In this document: positions 3,127-31,035 of the stretch, piece after piece
Numbering within the stretch: the first letter of the stretch is position 1
Layout of the letters: the number at the start of each line of letters is the position of its first letter
Assembly: GCF_024721015.1 (NCBI RefSeq)
Contig: NZ_JANAIF010000027.1
Location: 1 to 32,000, forward strand
Reading direction: 5' to 3'
DNA length: 32,000 bases
Origin: Xenorhabdus bovienii
Lineage (GTDB): Bacteria; Pseudomonadota; Gammaproteobacteria; Enterobacterales; Enterobacteriaceae
Notes under the pieces: generated by a model
Databases searched by the model: none
What the model was told of the DNA's origin: nothing
Seen by the model: only the letters and a program-made list of their open reading frames with translations
Position numbers and translations under genes: made by a program

Positions 3127-4089
3127 TCATTGTTTTCCCCAAAAATTTTTATCAAATGGGTTGCCAATTATTTCATGCCAATTAATGACCTTTTCTAAAT
3201 CAGGTTTACTTAAATTCAATTTACTATCATAAGCTCTTAATTTTAATAAGTAGTCTTTCATAATTTCAATGCACTTTCTAGCCCAATCACCCTCCCCTGC
3301 GCTCCCCTTTGTTACATGAGGTCTATTCGGCATTCTTGGACGTGCAGGTTTAATTTTATCTATTAACTTTTCTTCAATATAACAAAAAACTATAGATTCT
3401 ACTTTTCGGTTAGACTTAATTTCATTATAAGTTACAGTTATTCCTGTTGCATTATTAATAATAGTTACGGCAGGCTCTATAACTCTTCTTTTAAATTCAC
3501 CGTATTTAGGATATAGCCCCTCCATACCAAGAGACATTTTTACCCACTCCACACCTAATGGATTAGTACAAATTACTCCATTTTCCTTTTTATTTTTATT
3601 TAATAACTTGTATTTCATTAACCAACTATAAATTCTAAAGGCAACCGGAGAATCTAGTTTAACCATTTCTTCTAAATTAATTTGAGTAAACGATTCTTTC
3701 AGTTCATATAAATAATCTCTAACATCTTCTGAAAACTTAACAGTGACATCGCCATAAGCATCTCCAACCCCTTGGTTTATTCTTGTAAACCAATAAATAA
3801 TATCTTTTTCGACTCGTTTTTTTTCTTCATTATATGAAAAAAGAACTACAGGTTTAGATGCTAATGATTCAACAACATTTCTAACTTGCTTATAACCAAT
3901 TTCTTTTAAACCATAAATATCTATATATTCTTTTGCGTAGACGGTATAAAACCCCTCCGGCTGAGGTTTTTTACTATCAATTTTTGTTAAAATCAAATAG
4001 AGCCAACGAATTTCAGGTAAAGTTAAGCTATACGAACCATCAATCAAATCATTTGCTTGTGTAAAAACAATAGAATTTTTATTTTTCAT
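3127..4089 (-). CDS. rep: Rep_3-family plasmid replication initiator (iteron-binding)
   Basis: The N-terminus SIVFTQANDLIDGSYSLTLPEIRWLYLILTKI matches the Rep_3 pattern (N-L-I-x-a-x-Y-x-L-t-l-x-E-x-R). An iteron array lies adjacent. Confidence 0.85.
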   Translation of the reverse strand: MKNKNSIVFTQANDLIDGSYSLTLPEIRWLYLILTKIDSKKPQPEGFYTVYAKEYIDIYGLKEIGYKQVRNVVESLASKPVVLFSYNEEKKRVEKDIIYWFTRINQGVGDAYGDVTVKFSEDVRDYLYELKESFTQINLEEMVKLDSPVAFRIYSWLMKYKLLNKNKKENGVICTNPLGVEWVKMSLGMEGLYPKYGEFKRRVIEPAVTIINNATGITVTYNEIKSNRKVESIVFCYIEEKLIDKIKPARPRMPNRPHVTKGSAGEGDWARKCIEIMKDYLLKLRAYDSKLNLSKPDLEKVINWHEIIGNPFDKNFWGKQ

Positions 4090-4338: not shown

Positions 4339-4401
4339 TGGATAAATAAAGTCATTCTGTGGATAAATAAAGTTATTCTGTTGATAAATAAAGTTATTCA
4401 C
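4339..4401 (+). repeat. Three tandem 21-bp repeats (T[GT]GATAAATAAAGTYATTC) adjoining the iterons
   Basis: Copies at 4339-4359, 4360-4380 and 4381-4401. They share the GATAAAT core with the iterons. Confidence 0.8.
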
Positions 4402-4560
4402 AGAAAATCTGTACATCTTTATTGATAAATCTGTACATCTACTTTGATAAATCCGTACATCTTTACTGATAAATCTGTACATCTTAAAAATGAGTCATTG
4501 ATAAATCTGTACATCTTTATTGATAAATCTGTACATCTTTATTGATAAATCTGTACATCT
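4401..4560 (+). repeat. oriV iteron array: six direct copies of TGATAAATCTGTACATCT plus one partial copy
   Basis: Copies start at 4423, 4445, 4467, 4499, 4521 and 4543 (22-bp period, one 32-bp gap), with a partial copy at 4401-4418. An A-rich stretch follows at 4561-4700. Confidence 0.9.
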
Positions 4561-4724
4561 ATGAGTTTATAACTTATTGATATACAAAAATTTAAATTTC
4601 ATAAGAAAAGAAAGGAAAAGTAATATGTAGCATAGGAGTAAAGAATAAGAATTTAAAGAAAAAGAAAAAAACAATAATTAATACTTCCCTTTTTAGCTAT
4701 TCAGTGACTCTGCTCCCATTACGA

Positions 4725-4800
4725 TTAAGTGATATTACGCTTCCTCGCCCGTTCGCTCCCTACGGTCGGTCACTTGGCTGCGGCGAGCGTTGCGGGTTAA
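4725..4800. repeat. Left arm of the 76-bp inverted repeat flanking the TA module
   Basis: TTAAGTGATATTACGCTTCCTCGCCCGTTCGCTCCCTACGGTCGGTCACTTGGCTGCGGCGAGCGTTGCGGGTTAA is the reverse complement of 5739-5814 with 1 mismatch. Confidence 0.95.
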
Positions 4801-4908: not shown

Positions 4909-5172
4909 ATGTCAATAACAAAACTGAGACAACAAGGCGGGGCTGTCGTCATGACGATCCCTAGTGAGATTCTTGCTACAAAGGGCTGGTTAGTCGGAAT
5001 GGTGATGAAGATTGATTCTTTTGGGGAAGCCATTAGCACAATGCCTTTAAAACGCATTCCTAGAGGTCGCAAGAGTGTTTCTGAAATATTATCGGACGTA
5101 GATACCGTAGAGATCCAAAAGCTCAATGAGCAATTAGGCGATCATTTGCCTGTTGGACGAGAGTTAATTTAA
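4909..5172 (+). CDS. AbrB/SpoVT-fold antitoxin (PemI/MazE-like)
   Basis: GGAVVMTIPSEILATKGWLVGMVMKI fits the swapped-hairpin AbrB-type motif. The stop overlaps the start of the downstream toxin gene. Confidence 0.75.
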   Translation: MSITKLRQQGGAVVMTIPSEILATKGWLVGMVMKIDSFGEAISTMPLKRIPRGRKSVSEILSDVDTVEIQKLNEQLGDHLPVGRELI

Positions 5173-5534
5173 TGGCGAAAAAAATCCCCGCTAAAGGTCA
5201 AATTTGGCATACAAACGGCGACCCTATTAGTGGTCGAGAATTTAAAGGGTCGCATTATTATCTGGTTATTTCAGACGAACAATTAAACAAAACGTTGGGA
5301 ACGGCGATTTGCGTTCCCATTACTAGCACAGGACTGACCGCCCGCTCATCAGGAGTTACTGTGATACTTGATGGAGCAAGCACCGATAAGGGGATTGTAA
5401 CGGGGTGTGCGTTATGTCACCAGTTACGCACACTTGATTTAGAAGCAAGAAACGCGAGTTATTCTTCAAACGTGACCCTTGAAATTCTGGATGAAGTCAT
5501 TGGAAAGATTATCGATATTATCGACCCTACTTGA
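5172..5534 (+). CDS. PemK/MazF-family endoribonuclease toxin
   Basis: GQIWHTNGDPISGREFKGSHYYLVIS...AICVPITS...CHQLRTLD matches the MazF/PemK pattern (GdIw..dP..G.E..g.RP.lVls...PiTs...dQiRtlD). Confidence 0.8.
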   Translation: MAKKIPAKGQIWHTNGDPISGREFKGSHYYLVISDEQLNKTLGTAICVPITSTGLTARSSGVTVILDGASTDKGIVTGCALCHQLRTLDLEARNASYSSNVTLEILDEVIGKIIDIIDPT

Positions 5535-5738: not shown

Positions 5739-5814
5739 TTAACCCGCAACGCTTGCCGCAGCCAAGTGACCGACCGTAGGGAGCGAACGGGCGAGGAAGC
5801 GTAATATCACTTAA
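5739..5814. repeat. Right arm of the 76-bp inverted repeat flanking the TA module
   Basis: Reverse complement of 4725-4800 (75/76 identical). Confidence 0.95.
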
Positions 5815-5835
5815 ATTATCGTTCTCGGTGATGTT

Positions 5836-6169
5836 TCCCTTATCTTTTGTCTCCGACCGTCAGACAATCGTATTGTGTTGCGTTCTGTGCCTGTTTGGTT
5901 CGCTCCGCTCACGGCTGACCAGCCCGGGGGGGTTCCCTGCTCTATTCAATCCCCCCTTTTTTATCGGCAAATCAACTAAGGGCGTTTTCCTTGGCTTTCG
6001 TGGGTTGCCTGACATGCCCTAAAGGGCATAAAAATAAATGAAAAAAAGCAAAATATTCAAGCATTAGATCAATCTAAACCTTGCACAATCACCCGAAAAC
6101 GGGCATAATGTATTTATCGAAACGGGGAATGTTCCCTACCACTAAATGCCAATAGGCAGGAGTTTTAAA
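5836..6169 (+). repeat. Leading-region cassette copy A: GC-rich module (about 5846-6030) + promoter + palindrome + RBS
   Basis: Identical to copy B (7405-7739) except for 3 substitutions over 324 nt. About 90% similar to copy C. Confidence 0.9.
6081..6109 (+). promoter_or_regulatory. Sigma70-type promoter of cassette A, followed by the GGGAA-TG-TTCCC palindrome (6125-6136)
   Basis: TTGCAC (6081-6086), 17 nt, CATAAT (6104-6109). The spacer contains CCCGAAAACGGG. Confidence 0.65.
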
Positions 6170-7360
6170 ATGACTAAACATGAATTAGCTATGGAAGCAT
6201 TAAACCGCGCTGAAAGTAATCATTCAGAAGCTAATTATGATGCTATTTTTGCGGGATTTATGGAGATGGAAATAAGCGAGGAAGATATTGAGCCGCGTGT
6301 TAATGTTTTTACGTTCCGTGCGTGGAAAGCCAAAGGTCGCGTAGTTAAAAAAGGTGAAAAAGGCGTTAAGGTAATTACCTATATTCTTGTTGATAAAAAA
6401 GAGGAAAATTCGGAAGAAACCAAAAAAGTGAAAGTGAAACGTCAAACTACTGTTTTTCATATTTCACAAACTAAACCTTTAGATGAACCAACAGAACCCA
6501 AAGATAAAACGGAAGATATCCCCCTCGAAGCGCAGGACGTTGATTTAGAGTCTCAAGAAAAGCCGCTTAACTGGTATGAAGAAAAGCAAGCCCGCCGCAA
6601 GGAGCGTTACCAAGAACTTGCAAAGAACGCAGCTATTCAAAGTAATGGAACTTATTCAAGAGCAAAAGAAATGGCATCAGTTATTCCTTTTGGTCAACCT
6701 ATTTTAATCGGACACCATAGCGAAAAACGCGATAGAAATTACAGACAAAAAATTACAAATACTTTTGATAAATCATTTGAGCAAGCCAAAAAATCGGAGT
6801 ATTACGAAAACAAAGCCGATTCCGTTGGTAAATCAGGTATATCCAGTGATGATCCTAATGCAATTGTAAAATTACAAGACAAATTAGCGCGGTTACAAAA
6901 AAGTCATGAAATCATGAAATCAGTAAATAAAATTGTTAAAAATAAAAAATTAACTGATGAACAAAAAATAATAAATATTGCAGAGTTAGGATTAAAAAAA
7001 GAAACGGCAGAAGAATTATTAAAAGGGGATTTTATAGGGCGTATTGGGTTTGCCTCTTATCGGCTTCAAAATAATAACTCTGAAATTAATAGAATTAAAA
7101 AAAGAATAGAAAGTTTATCAAAAAATAAAGATAAAACAGATGTGATTGAGGTTAACGAAAATTTCACTTTTAAACTGGATTATGAGATTAATCGGATCAT
7201 GTTTATTTTTGAAGGAAAGCCCTCTTATGATATTAGAGAGATTTTAAAAGGAAATGGGTTTAATTGGAGTAAAACCAATAATGCTTGGATAAGAAAAACA
7301 ACTTCTAATGCGCTTTATGCTGCTAAATCTGTCAAAGCGCAATTATTAAATTTATCGTAA
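6170..7360 (+). CDS. ArdC-N-like ssDNA-binding motif fused to a DUF3560-like domain (leading-region protein)
   Basis: AGGAG lies 7 nt before the ATG at 6170; the track start at 6146 has no SD. TFRAWKAKGRVVKKGEKGVKV resembles the ArdC N-domain motif. IPFGQPILIGHHSEKRDR...ISSDDPNAIVKLQDKLARLQ resembles DUF3560. Confidence 0.65.
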   Translation: MTKHELAMEALNRAESNHSEANYDAIFAGFMEMEISEEDIEPRVNVFTFRAWKAKGRVVKKGEKGVKVITYILVDKKEENSEETKKVKVKRQTTVFHISQTKPLDEPTEPKDKTEDIPLEAQDVDLESQEKPLNWYEEKQARRKERYQELAKNAAIQSNGTYSRAKEMASVIPFGQPILIGHHSEKRDRNYRQKITNTFDKSFEQAKKSEYYENKADSVGKSGISSDDPNAIVKLQDKLARLQKSHEIMKSVNKIVKNKKLTDEQKIINIAELGLKKETAEELLKGDFIGRIGFASYRLQNNNSEINRIKKRIESLSKNKDKTDVIEVNENFTFKLDYEINRIMFIFEGKPSYDIREILKGNGFNWSKTNNAWIRKTTSNALYAAKSVKAQLLNLS

Positions 7361-7393: not shown

Positions 7394-7404
7394 TTATCTT
7401 GTGG

Positions 7405-7739
7405 TTTTCCTTTCTTTTGTCTCCGACCGTCAGACAATCGTATTGTGTTGCGTTCTGTGCCTGTTTGGTTCGCTCCGCTCACGGCTGACCAGCCCGGGGG
7501 GGTTCCCTGCTCTATTCAATCCCCCCTTTTTTATCGGCAAATCAACTAAGGGCGTTTTCCTTGGCTTTCGTGGGTTGCCTGACATGCCCTAAAGGGCATA
7601 AAAATAAATGAAAAAAAGCAAAATATTCAAGCATTAGATCAATCTAAACCTTGCACAATCACCCGAAAACGGGCATAATATATTTGTCGAAACGGGGAAT
7701 GTTCCCTACCACTAAATGCCAATAGGCAGGAGATTTAAA
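7405..7739 (+). repeat. Leading-region cassette copy B
   Basis: See copy A. Confidence 0.9.
7651..7679 (+). promoter_or_regulatory. Sigma70-type promoter of cassette B; palindrome at 7695-7706
   Basis: TTGCAC, 17 nt, CATAAT. Confidence 0.65.
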
Positions 7740-8075
7740 ATGTCAGTATCTAAATTAGTTTTTCGTAATGGTTCGGTTTCAGTGAATGATGTTTTAGCTT
7801 CATCTTGGGGTTACGAACAAACCAACGTGAATTTTTATCAGGTGATCGAGTTACACGGTAAAAAAACGGTCATTGTAAGAGAAATTAGTGCTAAAACGCG
7901 CAAAGATGGGAATATGTCAGGCTATAAAAAACCCGTATTAAATGACTTTATTGGTGAGCCACTTCGCCGTCAAGTGAAAGAGTATGATTCAGAGCCTTTG
8001 ATTAAAATTGAAGATTTTGAACAAGCCAGACTAACTCCAGTAGACGAAGAACACTTTTTTAGCTCTTGGTACTAA
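7740..8075 (+). CDS. Hypothetical leading-region protein (111 aa)
   Basis: ORF with the cassette RBS (AGGAG, 7 nt, ATG 7740). No family recognised. Confidence 0.6.
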   Translation: MSVSKLVFRNGSVSVNDVLASSWGYEQTNVNFYQVIELHGKKTVIVREISAKTRKDGNMSGYKKPVLNDFIGEPLRRQVKEYDSEPLIKIEDFEQARLTPVDEEHFFSSWY

Positions 8076-8446: not shown

Positions 8447-9274
8447 ATGACCGATAAAAAAGCAACTTCATTAGATCAGCTTTCACGTCTTGATAAAGAA
8501 GCTGTAAGATCAAGAAAAACCTTAATGCTTGATATTAAATTTCTTGAGTTGCCAAAAGAATTGAATATTCGTTATGCGGGTTTAGGTTATGATGAATATT
8601 GGGAACAACCTTATGTAAAAGAATATGTCTCTAAACTGGCAAAAGACTATGCTGATGGAGGGGTTTTCCCGCCTATCGTAGTGAAATTTGACGTTGATAT
8701 CCAAAAAGCCGTTATTATTGATGGTGCTCATCGATACATGGCTATTAAAGAAGCTAACACAGAGTTAGGGGCTGAAATTATTCGCCATGCAGTAACAGAC
8801 TCTAAAGGGGATGAAGCAAAAAACATCTTATTGATGATCAACACAGGTCAGCGTTTAGATGTGAGCGCGGTTGAGATTGCCGAGGGGTTAGCCCGTTTAG
8901 AGGCGTTCGGCTTCACGGTTGAAGAAATTGCGGGAAAAGTGGGTAAAACGGTTCAACATGTTTACTATATGAAAAAAGTAAATAACTTACCCATTGAAAT
9001 CAAAAAACTGATACGCCAGAAAAAACTGACGGTTGCAAAAGCGTTATCCGGCGATAAACCGAAAAAATATACCCCGCCCAAGAAAACGGTTTCTAAAATT
9101 TTAGATATTGTGGCAGAAGCCCATCCAGAAATTAACGGGGAGTTGGTGAATGTGTCAATTCCGCTGGAACTCTACAAACAACTGTTTGATCCAAATATGG
9201 ATATTAATAACGAGAGTCAAGAAGAGGAGAGTCAAGAAGAGGAGAGTCAAGAAGAGGAGAGTCAAGAAGAGTAA
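8447..9274 (+). CDS. ParB/Srx-fold (ParB-like nuclease domain) protein with an acidic (ESQEE)x4 C-terminal tail
   Basis: PPIVVKFDVDIQKAVIIDGAHRYMAIKEA matches the ParB N-domain DGxHR motif. An HTH-like segment FTVEEIAGKVGKTVQHVYYM follows. The upstream CGCCAATAGGCGGGAG resembles the cassette RBS. Confidence 0.7.
   Translation: MTDKKATSLDQLSRLDKEAVRSRKTLMLDIKFLELPKELNIRYAGLGYDEYWEQPYVKEYVSKLAKDYADGGVFPPIVVKFDVDIQKAVIIDGAHRYMAIKEANTELGAEIIRHAVTDSKGDEAKNILLMINTGQRLDVSAVEIAEGLARLEAFGFTVEEIAGKVGKTVQHVYYMKKVNNLPIEIKKLIRQKKLTVAKALSGDKPKKYTPPKKTVSKILDIVAEAHPEINGELVNVSIPLELYKQLFDPNMDINNESQEEESQEEESQEEESQEE
9212..9271 (+). repeat. Perfect 15-bp x4 tandem repeat (GAGAGTCAAGAAGAG) encoding ESQEE x4
   Basis: Read directly from the sequence; it ends at the stop codon. 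Confidence 0.95.
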
Positions 9275-10519: not shown

Positions 10520-10824
10520 CGTTTCCCATATCTTTTGTCTCCGACCGTCAGACAATCGTGTTGTGTTGCGTTCTGTGCCTGTTTGGTTCGCTCCGCTCAC
10601 GGCTGACCAGTGCGGGGGGGGTTCCCTGCTCTATTCAATCCCCCCTTTTTTATCGGCAAATCAACTAAGGGCGTTTTCTTGGCTTTCGTGGGTTGCCTTA
10701 CATGCCCTAAAGGGCATAAAAAATCAAAAATAAACTTGCACTAACGCCCTAAAACGGGCATAATATATTTGTCGAAACGGGGAATGTTCCCTACCACTAA
10801 ATGCCAATAGGCAGGAAAGTTAAA
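10520..10824 (+). repeat. Leading-region cassette copy C
   Basis: Same module as A and B, with a G-tract +1, a T-tract -1 and a shorter linker between the module and the promoter. Confidence 0.9.
10746..10774 (+). promoter_or_regulatory. Sigma70-type promoter of cassette C
   Basis: TTGCAC, 17 nt (containing GCCCTAAAACGGGC), CATAAT. Confidence 0.65.
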
Positions 10825-11028
10825 ATGCAACCAACTATTATTATCAATATTCTATTCAATAAACCTAAAACGTTTATTTTTCACCTTAAAGCGTTAAATG
10901 TTCACAAAGAAATCGTTAACGTAGAAACAACTCTTATTCAGGTAAAAGACACTGAGCATCTTTTAAGTGAAATCAAACGTTATGAGGATTTGGGATATAT
11001 AGAAATCGCGTGTAAAGAAATGATCTAA
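10825..11028 (+). CDS. Hypothetical small protein (67 aa)
   Basis: Cassette RBS before the ATG at 10825. Confidence 0.5.
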   Translation: MQPTIIINILFNKPKTFIFHLKALNVHKEIVNVETTLIQVKDTEHLLSEIKRYEDLGYIEIACKEMI

Positions 11029-11376: not shown

Positions 11377-11643
11377 TTGCTAGAATACTTCACAGAATTG
11401 GCGAATGAGGGTTTTATCAAGTGGAGTGATTCGTTAGATACCCCTGCCCCTGAACTGTTTGATAGCATCGAGGGTTTACACTTGGGTTATTATGACCTGA
11501 TTAATTTTTATTTTAAAGATGGTTATCCGGTCGGTTTTAGCGATGAATCACTATTATTAAAAATTCAAAAATTAATAGTTGCAATCACGCCCGTTATCGG
11601 GCATATTGTATTTATTGAAACGGGAAATATTCCTTACCACTAA
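11377..11643 (+). CDS. Doubtful ORF (TTG start) whose 3' end reads through promoter cassette D
   Basis: ORF track only. Its last ~20 codons are the conserved promoter and palindrome sequence. Confidence 0.25.
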   Translation: MLEYFTELANEGFIKWSDSLDTPAPELFDSIEGLHLGYYDLINFYFKDGYPVGFSDESLLLKIQKLIVAITPVIGHIVFIETGNIPYH

Positions 11644-11667
11644 ATGCCAATAGGCAGGAAATTTAAA
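11579..11667 (+). promoter_or_regulatory. Cassette copy D (short form: promoter + palindrome + RBS only)
   Basis: TTGCAA (11579-11584), 17 nt, CATATT (11602-11607), then GAAACGGGAAATATTCCTTACCACTAAATGCCAATAGGCAGGAA. Confidence 0.65.
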
Positions 11668-11979
11668 ATGACAACACGTAATATTGAAATTGCAAACACA
11701 ATTTTAGCTCAAATGGGAGGTAATTGTTTTATTGCCATGACAGGCGCAAAATATCTGGTAGCCATTGAAAATGGGTTGCAATTTAAACTTCCAGCGCGTT
11801 TTGCGGCAAAGGGCATTAACTGCGTCCAAATCACCCTCGAACCGTCCGACACCTATAAAATGAAATTTTTAAAAATCAGAGGGATAGAGTGTAAGGAAAT
11901 ATCCGAAATTCAAGGGGTTTTTTTCGACCAGCTTCAAGAATTTTTCACAGAAAAAACAGGGTTAAATTCCTATTTATAA
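11668..11979 (+). CDS. Hypothetical leading-region protein (103 aa)
   Basis: Cassette RBS before the ATG at 11668. ILAQMGGNCFIAMTGAKYLV...ITLEPSDTYKMKF looks like a conserved plasmid or phage family that I cannot name. Confidence 0.6.
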   Translation: MTTRNIEIANTILAQMGGNCFIAMTGAKYLVAIENGLQFKLPARFAAKGINCVQITLEPSDTYKMKFLKIRGIECKEISEIQGVFFDQLQEFFTEKTGLNSYL

Positions 11980-12453: not shown

Positions 12454-13731
12454 CTAATCACTTGATATTAAATCTGCTAAATCATCAAGCGTCAGCCCAA
12501 ATTCATATAGCAATGATATGGCTTTTTCTTGATTTATCTGTTTTAGTCGCTGCCGCTTAAATTCTCTTGCTAGCCTAATTTTATTTATTCTTTTTATTTC
12601 TGATTGATAGTGTTCAAAAATTTTCATTTTTTTCATAAATTGTAGTGGATTACCATTCTGATTAGGAGAATTAGGACAGTACATATCCAATACATTGAGG
12701 CTGGAGCGAAATTCGTTATAATTACAGTGCAAAATATTATCAGAAATATTATGGTAAACTTCTCCAGCAAGAGTGGATTTAAAATCTGGATTGAAGCCGC
12801 CTGTATTCATTTTTAAAACTGCTTCTACACAGAGTTTAATCGGAGTCCATTCAAATTTTTCTCTTAATTTGAATTTATGAGATGATAATTTTCTTAACTT
12901 GGCTTTTTCATAAAATATATTGAGTGCAATGATGTTGTCACCAATCGTAGCATTGATAGATATCACTTCTGGCGGTATGGCTTGATAACTGCTTCTTGAA
13001 CACCCATCGATAATACTAATTTCAGGTAATTCAGGAGAAACCATGAAACGTTTACTATTTATTGTTCGTGCATTGTATGGTGTGAGTTCATAAATTGGTT
13101 TTTCACTCTCTGGTTTGCCTTTTTGCCAGAAATGAGTAATGACATGAGTGTTTTTTCCACATATTGAGCACTCTCCATGAGAACGACTTGATGAATCCAG
13201 CCAATAGTAGTTTGGAATGGAGAAATAAATTGAGGTATCTGCACTATCAGATGTATTGCTTTTTATGGTTTCTCCCAGCGTCTCTTTTTCAATAAAATAT
13301 GTTACGGTGTTGAAATACATACCAGGGCGGAGTCCTGTCCCTCCCGGGCTAACAAATTGAGTTTTAGTATATAGTGCAATTGCGGCACATGGTTCACACA
13401 TTTGTTGACAATTATTCCGTTTGACGAAATGGTCAGTATTTTTTTTAATGGCGCTTTCACTAGGTGAGTCTAGTAACAATAAATCTATATTTTTTAGAGT
13501 CCCTTCTTGTGCTTTTGGATCTTGCACAAACCGTTCTATACCATTTAAGACCGTATAGAATTTATACGGATATTTTTTAACCCCGATCATTAGCAATAAA
13601 AAAGCGTAGTGAAATTCAAATCGGCTGAACGCCAGATGTGAGAGAGGTAAATTCATTGCCTCATCGATTGTGATGCGGGTAAATCCGCCGTTCTGCATTA
13701 CAGGAATCCATTTATCATTCAACAAATCCAT
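12454..13731 (-). CDS. Solitary Cse1/Cas8e-like protein (type I-E Cascade large-subunit homologue), 425 aa
   Basis: By-eye alignment to E. coli CasA: MDLLNDKWIPV vs MNLLIDNWIPV; LAFSRFEFHYAFLLLMIGV vs LSLPRDDMELAALALLVCIGQ; MCEPCAAIALYTKTQFVSPGGTGLRPGMYFNTVTYFI vs LCGGCTAIALFNQANQAPGFGGGFKSGLRGGTPVTTFV; ECSICGKNTHVITHF vs KCSCCGQESNLRYTGF. No other cas gene or array in the window. Confidence 0.75.
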   Translation of the reverse strand: MDLLNDKWIPVMQNGGFTRITIDEAMNLPLSHLAFSRFEFHYAFLLLMIGVKKYPYKFYTVLNGIERFVQDPKAQEGTLKNIDLLLLDSPSESAIKKNTDHFVKRNNCQQMCEPCAAIALYTKTQFVSPGGTGLRPGMYFNTVTYFIEKETLGETIKSNTSDSADTSIYFSIPNYYWLDSSSRSHGECSICGKNTHVITHFWQKGKPESEKPIYELTPYNARTINSKRFMVSPELPEISIIDGCSRSSYQAIPPEVISINATIGDNIIALNIFYEKAKLRKLSSHKFKLREKFEWTPIKLCVEAVLKMNTGGFNPDFKSTLAGEVYHNISDNILHCNYNEFRSSLNVLDMYCPNSPNQNGNPLQFMKKMKIFEHYQSEIKRINKIRLAREFKRQRLKQINQEKAISLLYEFGLTLDDLADLISSD

Positions 13732-13733
13732 AG

Positions 13734-14120
13734 TTACTCCTGAACGTATTTTTTGGCTATTTGGTGTAAATCAGAGAGGTAGGTTTCCTCATGAATTGAA
13801 TTATTTATGGCATCAAATGCGCCTTTTCTATAATGCTCATCCTCGTAGGTGTACTGAGAAACTATAGATTCAATGACGTCGGTAGTGACATCATCACCTG
13901 AGATGAAGCCAGATTTAGCGAGCGCTATCGCCTCGTTTATTTCACGCTGTTTTTTCTCTAGTGCCTCGATTAATCGATATGTCATAGGGGGACGCGAATC
14001 ACCAGATACATAGCGTCTAACTGCGCGAGACTCTACTCCCAAAAGGCGAGACATAGGAGATTGCCATTGTTTACCAAAAACTTTTTCACCAATTACAATT
14101 AATTTTTCTCGGTTATCCAT
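13734..14120 (-). CDS. HTH DNA-binding protein (Cro/YdaS-like N-terminus); candidate operon autoregulator
   Basis: FGKQWQSPMSRLLGVESRAVRRYVSGDSRPP is HTH-like. GGAG lies before the ATG. The stop is 2 nt from the Cas8e-like start, which suggests translational coupling. Confidence 0.65.
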   Translation of the reverse strand: MDNREKLIVIGEKVFGKQWQSPMSRLLGVESRAVRRYVSGDSRPPMTYRLIEALEKKQREINEAIALAKSGFISGDDVTTDVIESIVSQYTYEDEHYRKGAFDAINNSIHEETYLSDLHQIAKKYVQE

Positions 14121-14170: not shown

Positions 14171-14329
14171 TTAAACCCGATATTTTTCTACGATGGCATT
14201 AGCGCTTTCATCGTCTTCAGCATTGCGATACAGATCTTCGATTATTTCGTCTTCGCGCTCGATATCAATAGCATTAATCCAGCCGCAGTTAGTTAAATAG
14301 GTTTTAGCATCATTGGTTGAATTAAACAT
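14171..14329 (-). CDS. Small acidic protein, 52 aa (13 D/E, 5 K/R)
   Basis: The internal ATG at 14329 has GAGGA 6-7 nt upstream and lies downstream of the predicted promoter. The track start at 14449 lies upstream of that promoter. Confidence 0.55.
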   Translation of the reverse strand: MFNSTNDAKTYLTNCGWINAIDIEREDEIIEDLYRNAEDDESANAIVEKYRV

Positions 14330-14386
14330 ATTTGAATCCTCTAGTGGTTTGTTTATCGGTCGGGTCAATTCCCTTACCGTAACTAC

Positions 14387-14415
14387 AGTATAAAATGACC
14401 TAATTATTAGGTCAA
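14387..14415 (-). promoter_or_regulatory. Near-consensus sigma70 promoter with an embedded palindromic operator
   Basis: On the minus strand: TTGACC (14415-14410), 17 nt, TATACT (14392-14387). The spacer holds GACCTAAT-T-ATTAGGTC (14397-14413), with perfect 8-bp arms. Confidence 0.7.
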
Positions 14416-14498
14416 TAAAGATTACTAAATAATCTGTTATTTTTATCACAAACTCTCAACACCCCATGCCATCAGTTATCCACGGCTTTATGATTTTT

Positions 14499-14564
14499 CT
14501 CTTATCTTTTTGTCTCCGACCATCTGACTATCTCGTTGTGTTGCGTTCTGCGCCCGTTGGGTTC
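14499..14564 (+). repeat. Degenerate copy F of the 5' part of the GC-rich module
   Basis: CTCTTATCTTTTTGTCTCCGACCATCTGACTATCTCGTTGTGTTGCGTTCTGCGCCCGTTGGGTTC aligns to 5838-5902. Downstream sequence has diverged and carries GC hairpins (for example 14648-14667). Confidence 0.75.
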
Positions 14565-16416: not shown

Positions 16417-17148
16417 TTAAAATAATTTTAATTCTAATGAATCAAAAATATCTTGAAGATTCGATTGATAACTATCAAATCCCATTCGATAAAATTGTAG
16501 AAGTTGGAATTTAGATTTTTCTTTCGCATCTTTAGCTTCGGTAATCTGCTGTTTTAACGATTCCATATCTACACTTTTAATAAAACCATATTCAATATTG
16601 GCTTTTTTCAGTGTTTCAAACAGCGTAGTGTTATTGATGCCAATTAGCGGAATTTCAGAATAAAAAGAATAACCATATTCTTTTAAATCGTCACTGCAAA
16701 TCAGCGTTTCAAATTGTTTTAATAAATCTTTTTTTACATTTAAGCGGTTAAAAACCACTTTGATTTTTTCTGGATTAACACCAATATCAATTAATGTTTT
16801 AATTGTCGTGATGGTATCACGCTGCTGTTTTTCATCAGGCGTAACGGGAACAATAAACCAATCAATAAAAGAATGCGAACCCACAAATTCATTTTCGAGC
16901 TTATAGTTAAATACTTCAACGTTTGAAGCCCCAACATCAACTAAAACATTTTCAGAGGATAAAATGGATTGGAAAATCTCATCAAACAGATCAGCTCCTA
17001 ATTTTTCACCTGTGCTTTCCCCATCATCATTAAGGGTTTCAACACGGATCACATCAATACCGTCTAAACGAGGAACGAGCATATTTTGACAGATGGTAGT
17101 TTTTCCGACATTACCGCTGTTATTCATTACGATGATTTTCATATTCAC
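16417..17148 (-). CDS. ParA/StbB-like P-loop ATPase with an atypical Walker A
   Basis: MKIIVMNNSGNVGKTT shows a Walker A GKT but NSG in place of the KGG signature. ATGA overlap with the upstream gene. Confidence 0.75.
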   Translation of the reverse strand: MNMKIIVMNNSGNVGKTTICQNMLVPRLDGIDVIRVETLNDDGESTGEKLGADLFDEIFQSILSSENVLVDVGASNVEVFNYKLENEFVGSHSFIDWFIVPVTPDEKQQRDTITTIKTLIDIGVNPEKIKVVFNRLNVKKDLLKQFETLICSDDLKEYGYSFYSEIPLIGINNTTLFETLKKANIEYGFIKSVDMESLKQQITEAKDAKEKSKFQLLQFYRMGFDSYQSNLQDIFDSLELKLF

Positions 17149-17684: not shown

Positions 17685-17736
17685 TTTTTCACCTCTATAA
17701 GAGGATATCACGTTAAAAATAATAGTCAACGTAACA

Positions 17737-17829
17737 ATGCTTTAAATATGCTTTAAATATGCTTTAACTATGCTTTTTTTCATGGTTAATGCTTTGTTTT
17801 TGCATTATATATGCTTTAAAAATGCTTTA
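17737..17829 (+). repeat. Seven ATGCTTT(A/T/G) repeats, mostly phased at 11 or 22 bp (centromere or operator-like)
   Basis: Starts at 17737, 17748, 17759, 17770, 17789, 17811 and 17822. Confidence 0.8.
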
Positions 17830-17869
17830 TTAATAACAACTAAATTCTGACAGTGATAATTACAGGCAC

Positions 17870-17938
17870 GAGGGCGATGTATACATTAAGCTAAAGCTTC
17901 ATGTATAATCGACGTGCTTAGGGGGAAAGTCCCCCTAA
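17870..17938 (-). other. oriT: Candidate oriT: two inverted repeats plus a CGCCCTC nic-core-like motif on the minus strand
   Basis: IR1 is ATACATTAAGCT (17881-17892) / AGCTTCATGTAT (17895-17906). IR2 is TTAGGGGG (17918-17925) / CCCCCTAA (17931-17938). The minus strand reads ...AATGTATACATCGCCCTCGTG after IR1. Confidence 0.45.
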
Positions 17939-17989: not shown

Positions 17990-18346
17990 ATGAAAGAATC
18001 AAAAATAGAAAGAAAAAACATGGTGTCGTTTAGATTAACTGATGAAGAGTACGCACCATTTAAAGAAATCATTGAAAAAATGGATGTCAGCAAGAGTGAG
18101 TTTTTTCGCATGATGGTACTTGGTCAGGTTGAGGCAATTCCAAAGCTTCAAACCCGAAAACCGCCAGAGTATGACCGCATTCTCTTTTTAGTGAATAAAA
18201 CGAGCAACAACGTTAATCAGATTGCCAAACAAATTAACATTGCTTACAAAGAAAACACCGTGACCGAAAAACAGTTAACCGATTGGTATCGCAAATTGAG
18301 TATCATTACTGACAACTTAACGATAGGGATAGAACGTGTTAAGTAG
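17990..18346 (+). CDS. mobC: MobC-family relaxosome accessory protein
   Basis: VSFRLTDEEYAPFKEIIEKMDVSKSEFFRMMVLG...NNVNQIAKQIN matches the MobC family pattern (RHH-like N-terminus plus NxNQiAr). Confidence 0.8.
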   Translation: MKESKIERKNMVSFRLTDEEYAPFKEIIEKMDVSKSEFFRMMVLGQVEAIPKLQTRKPPEYDRILFLVNKTSNNVNQIAKQINIAYKENTVTEKQLTDWYRKLSIITDNLTIGIERVK

Positions 18347-21300
18347 AATTGGCGGTGGTAATAGTGGGATAGTTTATTACCTTGAAACAGGTCAAAAGCA
18401 AGGTCGTGAACTTGGGCGTGATGATTTAGACTATCGTTTATGTTTAGATGGGAACATCGAGCAATTAGATCATGTTATTGAAAGCATTCCAGATAAAGGA
18501 CAAGAACGCTATTTACACATTTCACTTTCTTTTCATGAAAGCCAAGTAAATGAAGAAACACTAAAAGCCGTTTGCGAAGAATACAAAACGCTTTTAATGA
18601 ATGCTTACGATAAAGACGAATATTGTTTTTATGCCGAAGCACACATTCCGAAAGTAAAAAATGTTGTCGATGAAAAAACGGGATTATTAATAGAAAGAAA
18701 GCCCCATATTCATATTGTGATCCCCGAAAAAAATTTATTAACAGGAAAACATTTAAATCCTAGAGGTCGTGGTGAATTCAATATTAAAAGCCTTGATGCC
18801 ATTCAAGAGCATATTAATAGTAAATTCAATTTAGCCAGTCCCAAAGATGGAGTTAGAGTAAGCGATCAGAACCATGCTAATGTATTATCCCGTATGAAAG
18901 GGGATTTGTTTAGTGAAGCTAAATCCGAGCTTAAACAAACGTTAATTTCTGACATTGAAAGTAAAAGCATTAAGACAGAAAAAGATTTTTTGACTCATTT
19001 ATCGCAATATGGGGAGGTGAAAACCTATAATCAAGGTAAATCAAATCAATATTATGGGGTTAAATTACCAGATGAAAGCAAGTTTACTCGATTAAAAATC
19101 CCATTATTTTCAAAACAATTTATTGAAACGCGGACTATTCCTTTAATCAAGCCAACTCCAAAGCAAATTGAAAAAGATTTAAACGAATGGTGCAATAAAA
19201 CCAGTCATGAAATAAAACATATTCATCCCGCAGGGGAAAGGTTGCGTAAAACCTACGCGAAATCAAGCGATCTTCAAAAAGCAGATATGCTTTTAACGTT
19301 AAGGAATCAATACAATGAGCGACACCAAATTGAACGAGAACCCAGAGAAAACCTTCATGGACAATTACAGCCCGGGAGAAATCCGCAGCGAGGTTTTACA
19401 CATCATATCCAAAGAACTCAATCCCGATCCGCGCCGGAGCGATTGTCATCTTTGCAAGAACGCAACATGGTTTACGAGCTACGAGGATTCGGGCAGCGCA
19501 AAACCGGACAATCTAACCCTGTATTGTCACCTAATGAACGTGGTGTTATTAAAAACGAACAAGATAGACAATATCATCGTAGCGGAATGCGACGGACATC
19601 GAATTCAAGAGGACGAGGAAGAATAACAAATCCAATTCAGCAATCATTAATGAAATTGGAAAATAAACCCTCTGAAAATGATTTAACGTTAATGCGAGAA
19701 ATCAGACAAACGATAAATCCTGAACGGTTTTTATCGTATTGCGTCAGTAAATATAATATTGACCCTGCATTGCATAAAGTGACGTTTGCAAAAGATAACA
19801 GCCCTCGATTTTGCGTTAGTAAACTAAATTTAAATGCGAGTGATTTTCTCACAAAACATTTAGGTTTATCGTGGGAAGATGCTAAAATAGACTTATTAAC
19901 GGTTAATGAATCTCAACAAAAAAATGAACCTTTCTTATCGGTTTTATCACGACCTCCATTAAATCGTGAGCAAGCAAAAGAAAGGTCTATTTCACGAGAA
20001 ACCGCGAAAAAAACATTAAACGTTTTTTACCGTGATGAAAAGAAAGCGTTGGAATTTGAATATCGAAAAGAATTGAAATCCATTTTTTCAATAAAAGATG
20101 TTCAAAAAAAAGAAGTTGAACGCGGCTTTTTAATGTTTAATCATTTAAAAGACATTGAAGCTTTAAATAAAATCACGCAGGAAAAACGCAGTGTTGTTAA
20201 TGCGATTCATAATCACTGGAATCCAAGTGATTTAGAACAGAAATTATTACTTGATAAAATGTTAACTGAAAGAGGAAATTACATGACCAATAAAATTATG
20301 AATGCTGATACTGATTTTAGTTTTGAAAAAGCAGTCACTCGCAAAAAACAATTTAATGAATTTGAAGAGCAAGTGAATTCAGGTAAAAAACTTACTGATT
20401 TAGTGGCATATAAAAAAGATAAGGAAGTCCAATATCTTGATCAAAAGACCAAACAAATGGTTTTTAAAGACACAGGTTCACATGTTGAAGCGAAAGGAAC
20501 AATCAGTAAAAATGAAGCCGCAATGATGCTGGAATACGCCAAAAAAAAATATGGCGGTGCATTACGTTTATCAGGCAGTGACGCTTTTAAAGAAACCCTC
20601 GCGCTTGCTGCTGCTGAAAAAGGCATGAATATTATTTTCACACCTGAAAAATATCATGAAATGATGTTAAAAGAGGTTGAACGCCTTAAAGAAATACAAA
20701 AACAGCAAAATACAAGTGATTTTAAAGAGCAAGATTCAAATACCATTAAAGAAAATACTAACATTAAAGTTGATTATCAGGTTAAATCTGAAAAAGAATC
20801 CGTTATTGAAAGTCCGCATGAAATCACAGTTGATAATACCCCTAAAAATACGTTATCTACGTTAGAAATGGAACCTGTTCATATCCCTGAAAGAAAAAAT
20901 AATGACCTTTCAGTTATGGCAAATAATGATGTACGAGCTTACGAGCAGAATAAGATTGCTGCTTATGAAATCATGTTTAAATCTCAACATAGCCCTGAAT
21001 ACGCTCAAGCATTAAAATCAGTGGGTGTTGATAAAGATACAATGCAAAACATTGAATTAATGGGTAGGCCAAGTCAAATCCCTGAGCAAGCGCGATTAGA
21101 CATTGAAAACAAAGTGAAAGCAATGGACTTTAACGTGTCTAAGTCTGATCTCGAAGCAATGGCAGCGCGTGATTTAAAGGCGGTAGAAAATCATAAAGTC
21201 ACTGCTTATGAAGTTATGCTTAAAATTGATTCTAATCCCGAATACGCTCAAGCATTATCGAAAATTGCGCCTAACGACGAGTTTATGAAAACAATTGAAA

Positions 21301-21875
21301 TAATGGCTAAATACTATCCAATGCCAGAGCAAGCAAAAAACAGTATTGAAGCCAAGCTTAAAGAGCAAGGATTTAATATTAATCCGAAACCAGAACAACA
21401 AAAACCAGCTACAGAAACGGCAACCATTGACGGAAAGAAATTCAATAAACTTATTGTTGTTCCAGTACAGAAAAACGATGGATTTGAAAGTAAAACGGAA
21501 TTTAAGGTTGCCTTTAAACAAGATGATAAGATGGTCACTCAATTAAAAGATGTGACTGAAAGTGATTTAAATCGTATGGGAATTGATACTAAAAATCTTG
21601 ATATGCGAAAAATTGAGCCAGTATCGATTAATATCACTAAATTAGCCAATCCACAGGTTGAATCACCGCTTAAACATGCTGAAAAACAACTTAACACGCA
21701 TGTTGACCACATGAAATCAAAAACGTGGTCACGTAGCGAATTTGACGAACTGAAAGAGCAACGTGGTAAACTGGATTCGAATGTTGAAAAGGCTAAATCT
21801 CAACATGCACCAGAACAAGCCCAACAGAACGAACAGAAGAAATCTCAAGAGCAAAATAAAGGGCGTAGTTTATAA
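18336..21875 (+). CDS. MobA/VirD2-family relaxase (1179 aa) with an LPD7-like domain and a duplicated C-terminal segment
   Basis: GIVYYLETG (candidate catalytic Tyr), HISLSFHESQ, and KPHIHIVIP (His cluster). FKDTGSHVEAKG...AKKKYGGALRLSGSDAFKETLALAAAEKG is LPD7-like. Roughly 65-aa repeats AYE(I/V)M(F/L)K...PEYAQAL...PEQA occur at about 20935-21125 and 21190-21385. Confidence 0.85.
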   Translation: MLSRIGGGNSGIVYYLETGQKQGRELGRDDLDYRLCLDGNIEQLDHVIESIPDKGQERYLHISLSFHESQVNEETLKAVCEEYKTLLMNAYDKDEYCFYAEAHIPKVKNVVDEKTGLLIERKPHIHIVIPEKNLLTGKHLNPRGRGEFNIKSLDAIQEHINSKFNLASPKDGVRVSDQNHANVLSRMKGDLFSEAKSELKQTLISDIESKSIKTEKDFLTHLSQYGEVKTYNQGKSNQYYGVKLPDESKFTRLKIPLFSKQFIETRTIPLIKPTPKQIEKDLNEWCNKTSHEIKHIHPAGERLRKTYAKSSDLQKADMLLTLRNQYNERHQIEREPRENLHGQLQPGRNPQRGFTHHIQRTQSRSAPERLSSLQERNMVYELRGFGQRKTGQSNPVLSPNERGVIKNEQDRQYHRSGMRRTSNSRGRGRITNPIQQSLMKLENKPSENDLTLMREIRQTINPERFLSYCVSKYNIDPALHKVTFAKDNSPRFCVSKLNLNASDFLTKHLGLSWEDAKIDLLTVNESQQKNEPFLSVLSRPPLNREQAKERSISRETAKKTLNVFYRDEKKALEFEYRKELKSIFSIKDVQKKEVERGFLMFNHLKDIEALNKITQEKRSVVNAIHNHWNPSDLEQKLLLDKMLTERGNYMTNKIMNADTDFSFEKAVTRKKQFNEFEEQVNSGKKLTDLVAYKKDKEVQYLDQKTKQMVFKDTGSHVEAKGTISKNEAAMMLEYAKKKYGGALRLSGSDAFKETLALAAAEKGMNIIFTPEKYHEMMLKEVERLKEIQKQQNTSDFKEQDSNTIKENTNIKVDYQVKSEKESVIESPHEITVDNTPKNTLSTLEMEPVHIPERKNNDLSVMANNDVRAYEQNKIAAYEIMFKSQHSPEYAQALKSVGVDKDTMQNIELMGRPSQIPEQARLDIENKVKAMDFNVSKSDLEAMAARDLKAVENHKVTAYEVMLKIDSNPEYAQALSKIAPNDEFMKTIEIMAKYYPMPEQAKNSIEAKLKEQGFNINPKPEQQKPATETATIDGKKFNKLIVVPVQKNDGFESKTEFKVAFKQDDKMVTQLKDVTESDLNRMGIDTKNLDMRKIEPVSINITKLANPQVESPLKHAEKQLNTHVDHMKSKTWSRSEFDELKEQRGKLDSNVEKAKSQHAPEQAQQNEQKKSQEQNKGRSL
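19315..19626 (+). CDS. Overlapping alternative-frame ORF inside the relaxase gene (103 aa); possible mobB-like nested gene
   Basis: AAGGA lies 9 nt before the ATG. The segment is locally GC-rich. The relaxase frame is R/Q/G-rich low complexity here, while this frame looks like balanced, globular sequence. Confidence 0.35.
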   Translation: MSDTKLNENPEKTFMDNYSPGEIRSEVLHIISKELNPDPRRSDCHLCKNATWFTSYEDSGSAKPDNLTLYCHLMNVVLLKTNKIDNIIVAECDGHRIQEDEEE

Positions 21876-22490: not shown

Positions 22491-23153
22491 TTAGCTATCT
22501 TGAATGGAATCAATGAGTTCAGCGAATAAAAGCTCTAATTGTGCTTTTGCTGACCCTACATTTTTTCCTTTAAGCTCATGCACTCCCAGCCCTTCATTTA
22601 TGGCTTTTTCAAAAGCCTTTAAGTTTGATATGCGTGTTTTGAATGGAGATAAAAGCAGGGGATCATCGTTAAGATATTGTGTGATTTTTACTGCATCATT
22701 ATTAAATGGTGAAGTAGGGCAACGATTAAGTAAAGCAAAGGCTTTTAGCTTTGTGTTTTCCTTTTTAGCTTCGTTCACAATGGATGATAATTTATTCAGT
22801 GTAACAACTTCTAACATGGATGTCGGGCTTACTGGAGCTATAAATACATCTGCAACAAGTAATGCACTGCGAAGCTCAACGCTATCATGTCCGGCAGTGT
22901 CTACCAATATTACATCTGTTACCCCGTGCAATTTGTTAATTTCTTTATGTGTATTGCTTCCGTAACAAGTCATAATTGGAATATCAGGAACGGGCTGTTC
23001 TCGTCGTAAACTTTGCCATGTATTCAAATCTTCGTTTTTGTCTGTTCGCACTAATGCGACAGACGCAGTTTTTTGTTGCAACATTACTGCTGAGTTTGCC
23101 GTAATTGTTGTTTTTCCTACACCACCTTTATCTGATCCAAAAACTATAATCAT
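22491..23153 (-). CDS. parA: Type Ib ParA partition ATPase
   Basis: MIIVFGSDKGGVGKTT is a deviant Walker A (KGGVGKT). The ATG at 23153 has an upstream GAGG. Confidence 0.85.
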   Translation of the reverse strand: MIIVFGSDKGGVGKTTITANSAVMLQQKTASVALVRTDKNEDLNTWQSLRREQPVPDIPIMTCYGSNTHKEINKLHGVTDVILVDTAGHDSVELRSALLVADVFIAPVSPTSMLEVVTLNKLSSIVNEAKKENTKLKAFALLNRCPTSPFNNDAVKITQYLNDDPLLLSPFKTRISNLKAFEKAINEGLGVHELKGKNVGSAKAQLELLFAELIDSIQDS

Positions 23154-23181
23154 TTTCCTACCTCTCATTGATGTTTATCAT

Positions 23182-23333
23182 TGATTAATCAAAGGCTAGC
23201 AGAAGTGATTAATCAATGGATATCACGTAACGATAATCTTTGATTAACCATATCAAGATAATCATAGATTATCAATAATGATTAATCAAAAGATAACAAA
23301 ATATGTTAATCTTTGACTAATCATGCGTGTAAC
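23182..23333. repeat. Cluster of TGATTAATCA palindromes upstream of parA (centromere or operator)
   Basis: Perfect copies at 23182-23191, 23206-23215 and 23279-23288. Variants TGATTAACCA at 23241 and TGACTAATCA at 23324. One more perfect copy lies at 22453-22462, between parA and the ParG-like gene. Confidence 0.75.
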
Positions 23334-30736: not shown

Positions 30737-30852
30737 CTCCAGTTAAAACATTGAAAAAACCCAAAGACCCAACACCAAATAACGCTCCCACACAATCGAA
30801 GTCAACAAAAAACCCCATGATTTATAATGAGGCTTTTAAATATGTTAAGTGT

Positions 30853-31035
30853 TTACTGATCTTCTTTTTCTACCAAACGACATATGTCAGACATAAGCAA
30901 CTGAATATGCCCTGCGGACGCAACGATTATTTCTTTATCTTGTATTTCGTCAGAAGAGTTAACGATAATAGCCAGATGTTTATTTATATCTGATGCAAGA
31001 TTATATAACTCTTCCTCTTTAGTTAATTCACTCAT
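30853..31035 (-). CDS. Small acidic protein (60 aa)
   Basis: ORF track; co-directional with its neighbours. Confidence 0.4.
   Translation of the reverse strand: MSELTKEEELYNLASDINKHLAIIVNSSDEIQDKEIIVASAGHIQLLMSDICRLVEKEDQ

Follow-up and report, generated by a model that had tools for sequence, protein, structure and literature searches.

The best described relatives of the element discussed here are the plasmid 'G sites', which are primase (DnaG)-dependent single-strand initiation (ssi) signals of the G4 type. In R1/R100 the G site is found about 400 bp downstream of oriR, where leading-strand priming is the work of DnaG alone; a G4-type ssi is also known near the ColIb-P9 origin. Descriptions of plasmid G sites give conserved blocks in two domains with a dispensable variable domain between them, and a known arrangement is a primosome assembly site (PAS) for the lagging strand paired with a G site for the leading strand. 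Here we describe a repeated GC-rich module in a stretch of Xenorhabdus bovienii DNA (contig NZ_JANAIF010000027.1; 32,000 nucleotides, position 1 being the first letter), which we call the window and which belongs to a Proteus/Providencia-type conjugative plasmid. We predict with moderate confidence, from its sequence and its place in many plasmids, that this module is a G site.

Two other systems belong to plasmid leading regions, as the module does. The IncN leading region has CUP (conserved upstream) repeats that head its ArdK-controlled operons (PMC5371602, PMC6289460). The F and IncI1 plasmids use the Frpo design (PMC12672017; PMC11541004), a strategy in which the single-stranded DNA (ssDNA) is transcribed and its conversion to duplex is delayed (bioRxiv 10.64898/2026.01.09.698686). 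How the incoming single strand is primed in most conjugative plasmids, and how anti-defence genes are switched on rapidly without Frpo, is largely unknown.

A repeat search, nhmmer and a covariance model agree that the window has four full copies of the module and one 5' remnant, all of them on the + strand and named here in window order (helices H3 and H4 are described below):

5833-6039, + strand: copy A, drawn in the + sense, the predicted active template being the minus (transferred) strand; cmsearch 210.8 bits, E 3e-75
7403-7609, + strand: copy B, 98% identical to copy A
10521-10727, + strand: copy C, with a G8 tract and +1/-1 indels relative to copy A and a shorter spacer to the promoter
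14495-14564, + strand: copy D, a remnant with the first ~70 nt of the 5' domain only, after which it diverges; nhmmer E 3e-9, cmsearch 41 bits
26520-26730, + strand: copy E, diverged, with H3 as AGAGG/CCTCT and H4 as ATACCC/GGGCAC; cmsearch 155 bits, E 6e-55

The E values by which nhmmer and cmsearch delimit the full copies span 1e-55 to 1e-75, and a direct-repeat search returned 300-nt copies at 5832-6131, 7402-7701 (98%) and 10520-10819. A preliminary description of the window had reported five copies of about 185 nt; the repeats are real, with one of them (copy D) being a remnant, and the length is about 207 nt. The block GTCTCCGACC is present in every copy (5849, 7419, 10537, 14512 and 26536) and the block GTTCGCTnCGCTCACGGCT in the four full ones (5898, 7468, 10586 and 26583), and a 15-mer core occurs four times where 0.04 occurrences would be expected by chance. 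In copy A, GTCTCCGACC (5849) and GTTCGCTCCGCTCACGGCT (5898) fall in the 5' domain, the 3' domain has three hairpins, H2, H3 and H4, and at about 5920-5922 there is a conserved CAG (CTG when read on the minus strand). The earlier picture of conserved blocks separated by replaceable sequence, which matches the published descriptions of plasmid G sites, was accurate except in copy E; the GTGGGTTGC listed there as a block lies inside the H3 loop and is not positionally homologous, the 3' arm being CCTCT. The G7 run (5926-5932) and the C6 run (5951-5956) are as previously described.

The module is noncoding, as had been proposed. Among 79 indel runs counted in the family with copy A as the reference, 76 have a length that three does not divide; no reading frame is open throughout the family, stops being found in all frames, and the 64-aa and 51-aa open reading frames (ORFs) called in the module match no NCBIfam family. 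These results rule out a protein-coding reading, and the homologues show no protein-coding conservation.

The three hairpins of copy A are as follows:

5926-5956: H2, a G-run/C-run hairpin followed by the nearly invariant linker TTTTTTATCG
5966-6011: H3, GGCAA (5966-5970) with TTGCC (6007-6011) around a variable insert of ~36 nt
6014-6029: H4, the terminal hairpin ATGCCC-TAAA-GGGCAT, followed by an A-rich tract

Two of them, H3 and H4, are maintained by compensatory changes across about 25 distinct relatives. On the alignment fitted to the model, H3 is paired in 100% of cells, with changes on both sides in four of its five pairs, and H4 is paired in 93.5%, with compensatory changes in four of six. 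On a plain MAFFT alignment of 25 distinct sequences, which include R100, R6K and R46, H3 is paired in 96% of cells, and H3 and H4 jointly (25 distinct 3' domains) in 91%, with 7 of 11 pairs compensatory. The joint covariation is 0.272, as against 0.112 for shuffles, none of 500 reaching 0.272, and 0.10 or less for slid partners. RNAalifold recovers both helices, and its recovery of H4 is independent. The stem H3 is rebuilt in the relatives as GGCTG/CAGCC, AGCGG/CCGCT, GGCGA/TCGCC, GGCGG/CCGCC, GGCGCAA/TTGCGCC or AGAGG/CCTCT, and the helices are nearly all Watson-Crick.

The remaining candidate helices did less well. H1, H2 and H3b of our first structural model are weak, being paired in 70%, 76% and 51% of cells, respectively; the covariation of H2 is weak as well, and its inner part has been exchanged wholesale for other hairpins in relatives. 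Two pairings that had earlier been picked out by eye, 5859-5867 with 6005-6013 and 5908-5913 with 5999-6004, did not hold up (51% and 71% paired; covariation 0.089 as compared to about 0.08 for slid controls). Folding, a covariance model and an Rfam scan had been proposed as checks in the preliminary description: covariation is present in H3 and H4, and the single-sequence folds and the Rfam scan, both reported below, were negative.

Matches to the module occur in several classic plasmids. They were obtained with our covariance model R1, which was built from the Morganellaceae-type family alone, and with the cmsearch filters off. In R100 (L153) the match is at 40453-40519 (29.4 bits, E 8e-10; nhmmer E 1e-3); it is the sole significant match in 44 kb, has the same sense as repA and lies about 780-850 nt past the repA stop, which is ~400 bp beyond the DnaA box of oriR. 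The R64 match, at 2263-2329 (28.3 bits, E 4e-10), is the sole significant one in 9 kb and occupies the equivalent place. The R6K match (L150, 22876-23100; E 7e-14) is full length, including the 5' domain, H3 (GGCGA/TCGCC) and H4; it lies in the oriT region beside ddp1/taxA, ~90 nt past the nick-like CCTATCCTG/CA, which we take to be at about the position of R6K ori alpha. In R46 a copy closely follows the repA iterons (E 5e-9), and the model also matches each of the four CUP repeats, upstream of ccgAI, ardA, ccgD and ardB (E 3e-10 to 4e-12). Conservation extends to at least 5000 plasmids for the R100 site and to at least 1525 for the R6K site.

Compared with the G sites of R1/R100 and ColIb-P9/R64, the module has a 3' half that aligns (linker TCGG, stem H3, linker CCTTnC and hairpin H4). 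In both, conserved blocks surround dispensable variable sequence, CAGG (CTG on the template) stands, in most members, upstream of the hairpins, and the element is found a few hundred bp beyond the origin with its sense away from it. The window module differs in having an additional ~95-nt 5' domain and the G-run/C-run hairpin, and in being present as four to five copies across the leading region rather than as a single copy at the origin.

The distribution of the family points in the same direction. By blastn about 60 plasmids have the module, their hosts being Proteus, Providencia, Morganella, Arsenophonus, Yersinia and Klebsiella, and further examples come from Xenorhabdus and Photorhabdus contigs and from metagenomes; a pattern scan of genome contigs was unspecific and gave mostly chance matches, with six real loci. 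Tiny non-mobilizable plasmids have a single copy. For example, a 1951-bp plasmid that encodes Rep alone has rep first, followed by three iterons, AT-rich repeats and a perfect DnaA box, with the module last. The module lies beyond the origin and is directed away from it in L001, L003, L004, L144-L146, the window, pTAFB, L147, R46, R100 and R64, and the same geometry is seen with Rep3, TrfA, IncFII-type, IncI-type and IncN initiators. An ssi element, which was one of the possibilities raised in the preliminary description, is supported both by the homology of the 3' half to the R100 and R64 sites past the origins and by the presence of the family beside the vegetative origins of many unrelated replicons.

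Where the module lies relative to the origins of the window itself can be seen from the neighboring features:

3127-4089, minus strand: Rep3-family initiator gene
4377-4582, no strand: 22-bp iterons, vegetative origin
4735-4789, minus strand: inverted twin of a sequence like ColE1 ssiA (an n'-pas)
5172-5534: PemK toxin gene, downstream of which is an array of + strand genes
5750-5804, + strand: sequence like ColE1 ssiA (n'-pas), directly before copy A
6146-7360, + strand: ArdC-N/DUF3560 protein gene
8447-9274, + strand: ParB-HTH protein gene
16417-17148, minus strand: StbB gene
17880-17907, minus strand: oriT-type 13-bp inverted repeat
17990-21875, + strand: NikA/MobC-like gene and LPD7 relaxase gene

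The relaxase operon is directed away from the inverted repeat, and the + strand genes to the left of the repeat are directed toward it. After the repeat, read on the minus strand, is CATCGCCCTCG, possibly the nick region, within which the position of the nick itself is a prediction. From these gene directions and from the location of CATCGCCCTCG on the minus strand, we infer that the minus strand is the transferred one and that the leading region runs from ~17.8 kb down to ~5 kb. The earlier placement of the modules in a plasmid leading region, upstream of genes oriented toward oriT, agrees with the NikA/MobC-like and relaxase genes, StbB and the inverted repeat.

The copies share one orientation: all five in the window, three in pTAFB, three in L147, the four R46 CUPs and two of the three in pHI4320. 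In the leading-region copies of these same plasmids, the strand that would be transferred is the complement of the module + sense. In R100 and R64 the match runs in the direction of rep and of the fork, so that the leading-strand template is again the complement of the module + sense. The strand that would be transferred in the leading regions corresponds, then, to the strand that would be the leading-strand template in R100. CAG(G) stands on the + strand directly 5' of H2 in most members, a few having TAG or CAA.

The copies in the window also resemble the IncN CUPs of pKM101/R46. In both cases, successive co-oriented operons of the leading region start with direct repeats that all face one way, and stbAB is next to oriT. 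The GC-rich distal half of the CUP is homologous to the module, and beyond it there is likewise an A-rich tract and then a sigma-70 promoter whose inverted repeat is operator-like. In copies A to C the order is module, AT-rich spacer, sigma-70 promoter with operator-like inverted repeats and gene, the conventional promoter being 20-65 nt downstream of the module, and the R46 CUPs are laid out alike. The promoter parts of the window are:

6081-6109, + strand: sigma-70-type promoter TTGCAC-N17-CATAAT from a promoter scan; its spacer contains the inverted repeat CCCGAAAACGGG, and GGGGAATGTTCCC follows the promoter
6081-6187, 7651-7757, 10736-10842 and 11579-11685: 107-nt promoter/operator repeat, the fourth copy having no GC-rich module upstream

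The four copies of this promoter/operator unit suggest a common repressor. Unlike the distal half, the promoter/operator half of the IncN CUPs is unrelated in sequence and cannot be aligned by eye, and the IncN CUPs are without most of the 5' domain. A tblastn search of the window with the R46 ArdK, ArdR, ArdA, ArdB and Ccg proteins gave no match at E 0.01, and the operators differ in sequence. The similarity is best explained if a G-site-type signal also forms the distal half of CUP-like repeat units, so that module plus promoter is the counterpart of an IncN CUP. A link between the CUPs, the R6K/IncX block adjacent to oriT and the G site of R100 and ColIb was not found stated in the literature that we searched.

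If the module is a G site, it might work as follows. On a single-stranded minus strand covered by SSB, H4, H3 and H2 would persist, and the hairpins would present a conserved 5'-CCTGnTAAGCC-3', which contains the CTG preferred by primase. A short RNA primer would be laid there and extended by Pol III in the + direction. At the vegetative origin, the module past the iterons, the AT-rich region and the DnaA box would start the leading strand of the outgoing fork, a start of the kind reported for R1/R100. In the leading region, each copy sits after the end of one operon and before the AT-rich spacer and ordinary promoter of the next, and extension of the primer would run through the adjacent promoter and the anti-defence or maintenance genes toward oriT; the early genes would be made into transcribable duplex soon after the plasmid enters.

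The two ssiA-like sequences listed above are relevant to the first of these uses. These 55-nt sites are the best two matches between ColE1 and the window (76-78% identity, E 1e-5 and 2e-6, to NC_001371 1310-1364), and they flank a pemIK-like module between the iterons and copy A. They are probably PriA-type primosome assembly sites, one on each strand (4735-4789 on the minus and 5750-5804 on the + strand). The + strand site is on the lagging template of the rightward fork and stands directly before copy A, which would give the combination mentioned at the outset, a PAS serving the lagging strand and a G site serving the leading one.

We also put forward, tentatively, a broader proposal. Each operon in the leading regions of IncN-like, Proteus/Providencia-type and IncX plasmids may have, directly ahead of an ordinary duplex promoter, a signal at which primase starts on the transferred strand; the CUPs would then be priming-plus-promoter units, and early expression would be achieved by locally fast conversion to duplex, a strategy whose logic is the opposite of Frpo's, with the same element also serving as a leading-strand start at many unrelated vegetative origins. 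The connection of the CUPs to the G site is the interesting part here, as it suggests a 'prime here, then transcribe' design of early genes that can be tested. The module family would offer a concrete, testable answer to the questions of how the incoming strand is primed and how early genes are switched on without Frpo, namely a host-primase signal reused as the head of each early operon, and it would give a probable role to the GC-rich half of the IncN CUPs, so far unexplained, and to the conserved IncX block adjacent to oriT. Elements of these kinds, counted with the R100-type site, are found in thousands of resistance plasmids. Deletion or inversion of the module should shift the timing of plasmid establishment, which makes these elements candidate targets for blocking establishment.

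IncX-type plasmids have one full copy right after a nick-like ATCCTG/C beside ddp1/taxA, and its orientation is opposite to that of the leading-region copies:

L150 (R6K), 22791-23100
L127 (pHI4320), 30831-31033
L148, 4843-5053
L149, 5978-6185

The R6K element thus differs from the window modules both in being single and in its direction. The reversed orientation makes these copies unfit for priming in the recipient in the manner of the leading-region copies, and they probably serve vegetative replication instead.

Several observations weigh against the identification of the module as a G site. These four IncX copies (R6K, pHI4320, L148 and L149) are reversed relative to the transferred strand. 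The R100 and R64 matches are only presumed, from their position, to be the mapped DnaG-dependent G sites (G4-type ssi) of R1/R100 and ColIb. A few members lack the CTG of the template strand, and the 5' domain, which is strongly conserved, is missing from R100, R64 and the R46 CUPs and can stand alone. The origin of complementary-strand synthesis of phage G4 has the same overall logic, with three hairpins and then CTG on the template strand, but it shows no similarity to the module in sequence or by covariance model, the only common 8-mer, GTCTCCGA, being at chance level; direct kinship with this origin was dropped. Folds of single sequences, on either strand and as DNA or RNA, are not better than those of shuffles (z -0.6 to -1.5). 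As DNA, the two strands fold into several short hairpins (z -0.96 and -1.23), and the conserved helices are 5-6 bp. The DNA folding energies have no strand bias, and the cells of H4 that are not Watson-Crick, six A-C to one G-T, lean only weakly to the minus strand. As energies and wobble counts hardly separate the strands, the assignment of the minus strand as the active one rests on homology and orientation.

The preliminary description had also raised an ssDNA promoter of the Frpo kind. On that reading, the folded transferred strand mimics a duplex promoter, and RNA polymerase makes the cassette mRNA, and possibly a primer, before the complementary strand is made. The module does share its setting with Frpo and with ssi1-3 of IncF and IncI1 plasmids (leading region, upstream of early genes, transferred strand and a link to complementary-strand synthesis), and the inferred transferred strand is the template of the genes downstream of the modules. 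Frpo itself was first isolated as an ssi, and new classes of single-strand promoters that have no similarity to Frpo have been reported upstream of ardA, klcA and a methylase gene (PMC12672017). However, Frpo consists of a single long, imperfect hairpin in which -35 and -10 boxes are restored for RNA polymerase, whereas the module has three short hairpins, no long stem-loop (fold z about -1) and no conserved -35/-10 hexamers in its stems, the arms of H3 varying freely (GGCAA, GGCTG, AGCGG, GGCGA, AGAGG). A good conventional duplex promoter already lies downstream of it, and the same element is found at the origins of non-conjugative 2-kb plasmids and past oriR of R100 and R64, where there is nothing to transcribe. 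In addition, blastn (word 11) found no match in 5,426 complete E. coli genomes with plasmids, which include Frpo carriers. We consider a promoter of this kind quite unlikely. A structured RNA made from the + strand, such as a small RNA (sRNA), a leader or a 3' untranslated region (UTR) element, was another early suggestion, and it seems to us extremely improbable. Covarying helices would suit it, and the 5' domain with H2 and the T-run could in principle form an sRNA of ~130 nt. But Rfam 15 gave nothing at the gathering score over the whole window, and at E 10 only a spurious snoRNA match; there is no conserved promoter upstream of the module; and the module precedes the cassette promoter and in copy B follows a terminator-like hairpin of the preceding operon (AAGCCCTTAACGAGGGCTTTTT, from 7370, confirmed for this copy only). 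The IncX copies occur in both orientations relative to the neighboring genes, almost no G-U pairs are found in the helices, and the element also lies beside origins that have no sign of transcription.

Two further readings leave the module on duplex DNA or give it to another enzyme. It could be a regulatory or insulating part of a CUP-like promoter unit that works as duplex, namely a platform to which a protein of the host or plasmid binds, an intrinsic terminator (H2 plus the T-run, + strand) that protects each regulated promoter against read-through or a homologous-recombination substrate by which cassettes are shuffled. The homology to the IncN CUPs, which have been described as promoter/ArdK-operator units and as recombination sites, is in its favor, as is the fact that the copies are direct repeats flanking cassettes, and H2 with the following TTTTTT does resemble a terminator. 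The compensatory changes in H3 and H4, however, favor a folded single strand over a duplex binding site; the T-run after H2 is lost in R100, R6K and R46, and a terminator scan of the region found nothing. The promoter and ArdK-binding part is exactly the part of the CUP that is not homologous, the window has no ArdK or ArdR homologue, and tiny Rep-only plasmids have one copy beside a DnaA box with neither cassette nor regulator. This reading is unlikely. The other enzyme would be the PriA primosome, with the module as an assembly site of the phiX174 type or as a composite, the 5' domain being such a site and the 3' domain a G site. Clear homologues of the ColE1-type PAS are nearby, and the 5' domain has a short AGCGnAGCG motif like that of the phiX174-type PAS (ColE1 ssiA/rriA, phiX174 n'). 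The minus-strand core of this domain, GTGAGCG(N)AGCGAAC, shares GAGCGTAGCGA with the ColE1 ssiA region, which is the sole match in that plasmid and is reached by 2 of 200 shuffles; AGCGAAGCG is common to the module and the n' site in the phiX174 F-G intergenic region, and 3 of 200 shuffles reach it. These common motifs are only 9-11 nt long, though; the full 15-mer finds nothing within three mismatches, extended similarity to the module is lacking, and the R46 CUPs, R100 and R64 retain the 3' domain without the 5' one. We judge a PriA site, alone or in a composite, to be quite improbable. A Xer/cer site, a DnaA-box hairpin (ABC primosome) and an integration host factor (IHF) site were dropped by eye, their consensus being unmet or not conserved.

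Variants of the module are found in two groups of relatives. A short variant, which combines the ~95-nt 5' domain with one different hairpin and has neither H3 nor H4, is present ahead of rep in small MOBQ plasmids and in metagenome contigs (L070, L029, L145, L146, L128, L129, L131 and L134; also L127 35455-35610), and it shows that the 5' domain is an independent unit. In the Arsenophonus copies and in Yersinia pestis pCKF (L142 1496-1718; L143 2082-2303; L144, which is pCKF, 1325-1543) a second GTTCGCT..CGCTCAC block replaces the C-run and the T-run, as if this block were a repeated recognition unit for a protein or enzyme.

The window has some other features that deserve mention. At least five 11-bp repeats (ATGCTTTAAAT) are present at 17725-17842, between the stbA-like gene and the oriT inverted repeat, and they may be binding sites for StbA or an accessory protein. 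A 425-aa ORF at 12454-13731 is on the minus strand, the other one from that of the leading-region genes, and has a match to Cse1/CasA of type I-E CRISPR systems; the Pfam match (E 3e-11) is above the Pfam cut-off, and the NCBIfam match (31.5 bits) is below the curated cut-off of 70. The two small ORFs upstream of it, 13734-14120 and 14171-14449 (both minus strand), have no match. Size and position would have led one to expect umuDC, which this is not.

To the left of the Rep3-family gene, the segments 1123-1588 and 1973-2439, and likewise 1817-1953 and 2775-2911, are duplicated (~140-470 nt, 95-98% identity, spacing ~850-960 nt), and they cover a pair of 86-aa ORFs on the minus strand (1357-1617 and 2208-2468). 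Finally, two 66-nt direct repeats at 23186-23324, which are rich in TAATCA/TGATTA inverted motifs, lie upstream of the minus-strand gene at 22491-23168 and could be a partition or operator site.

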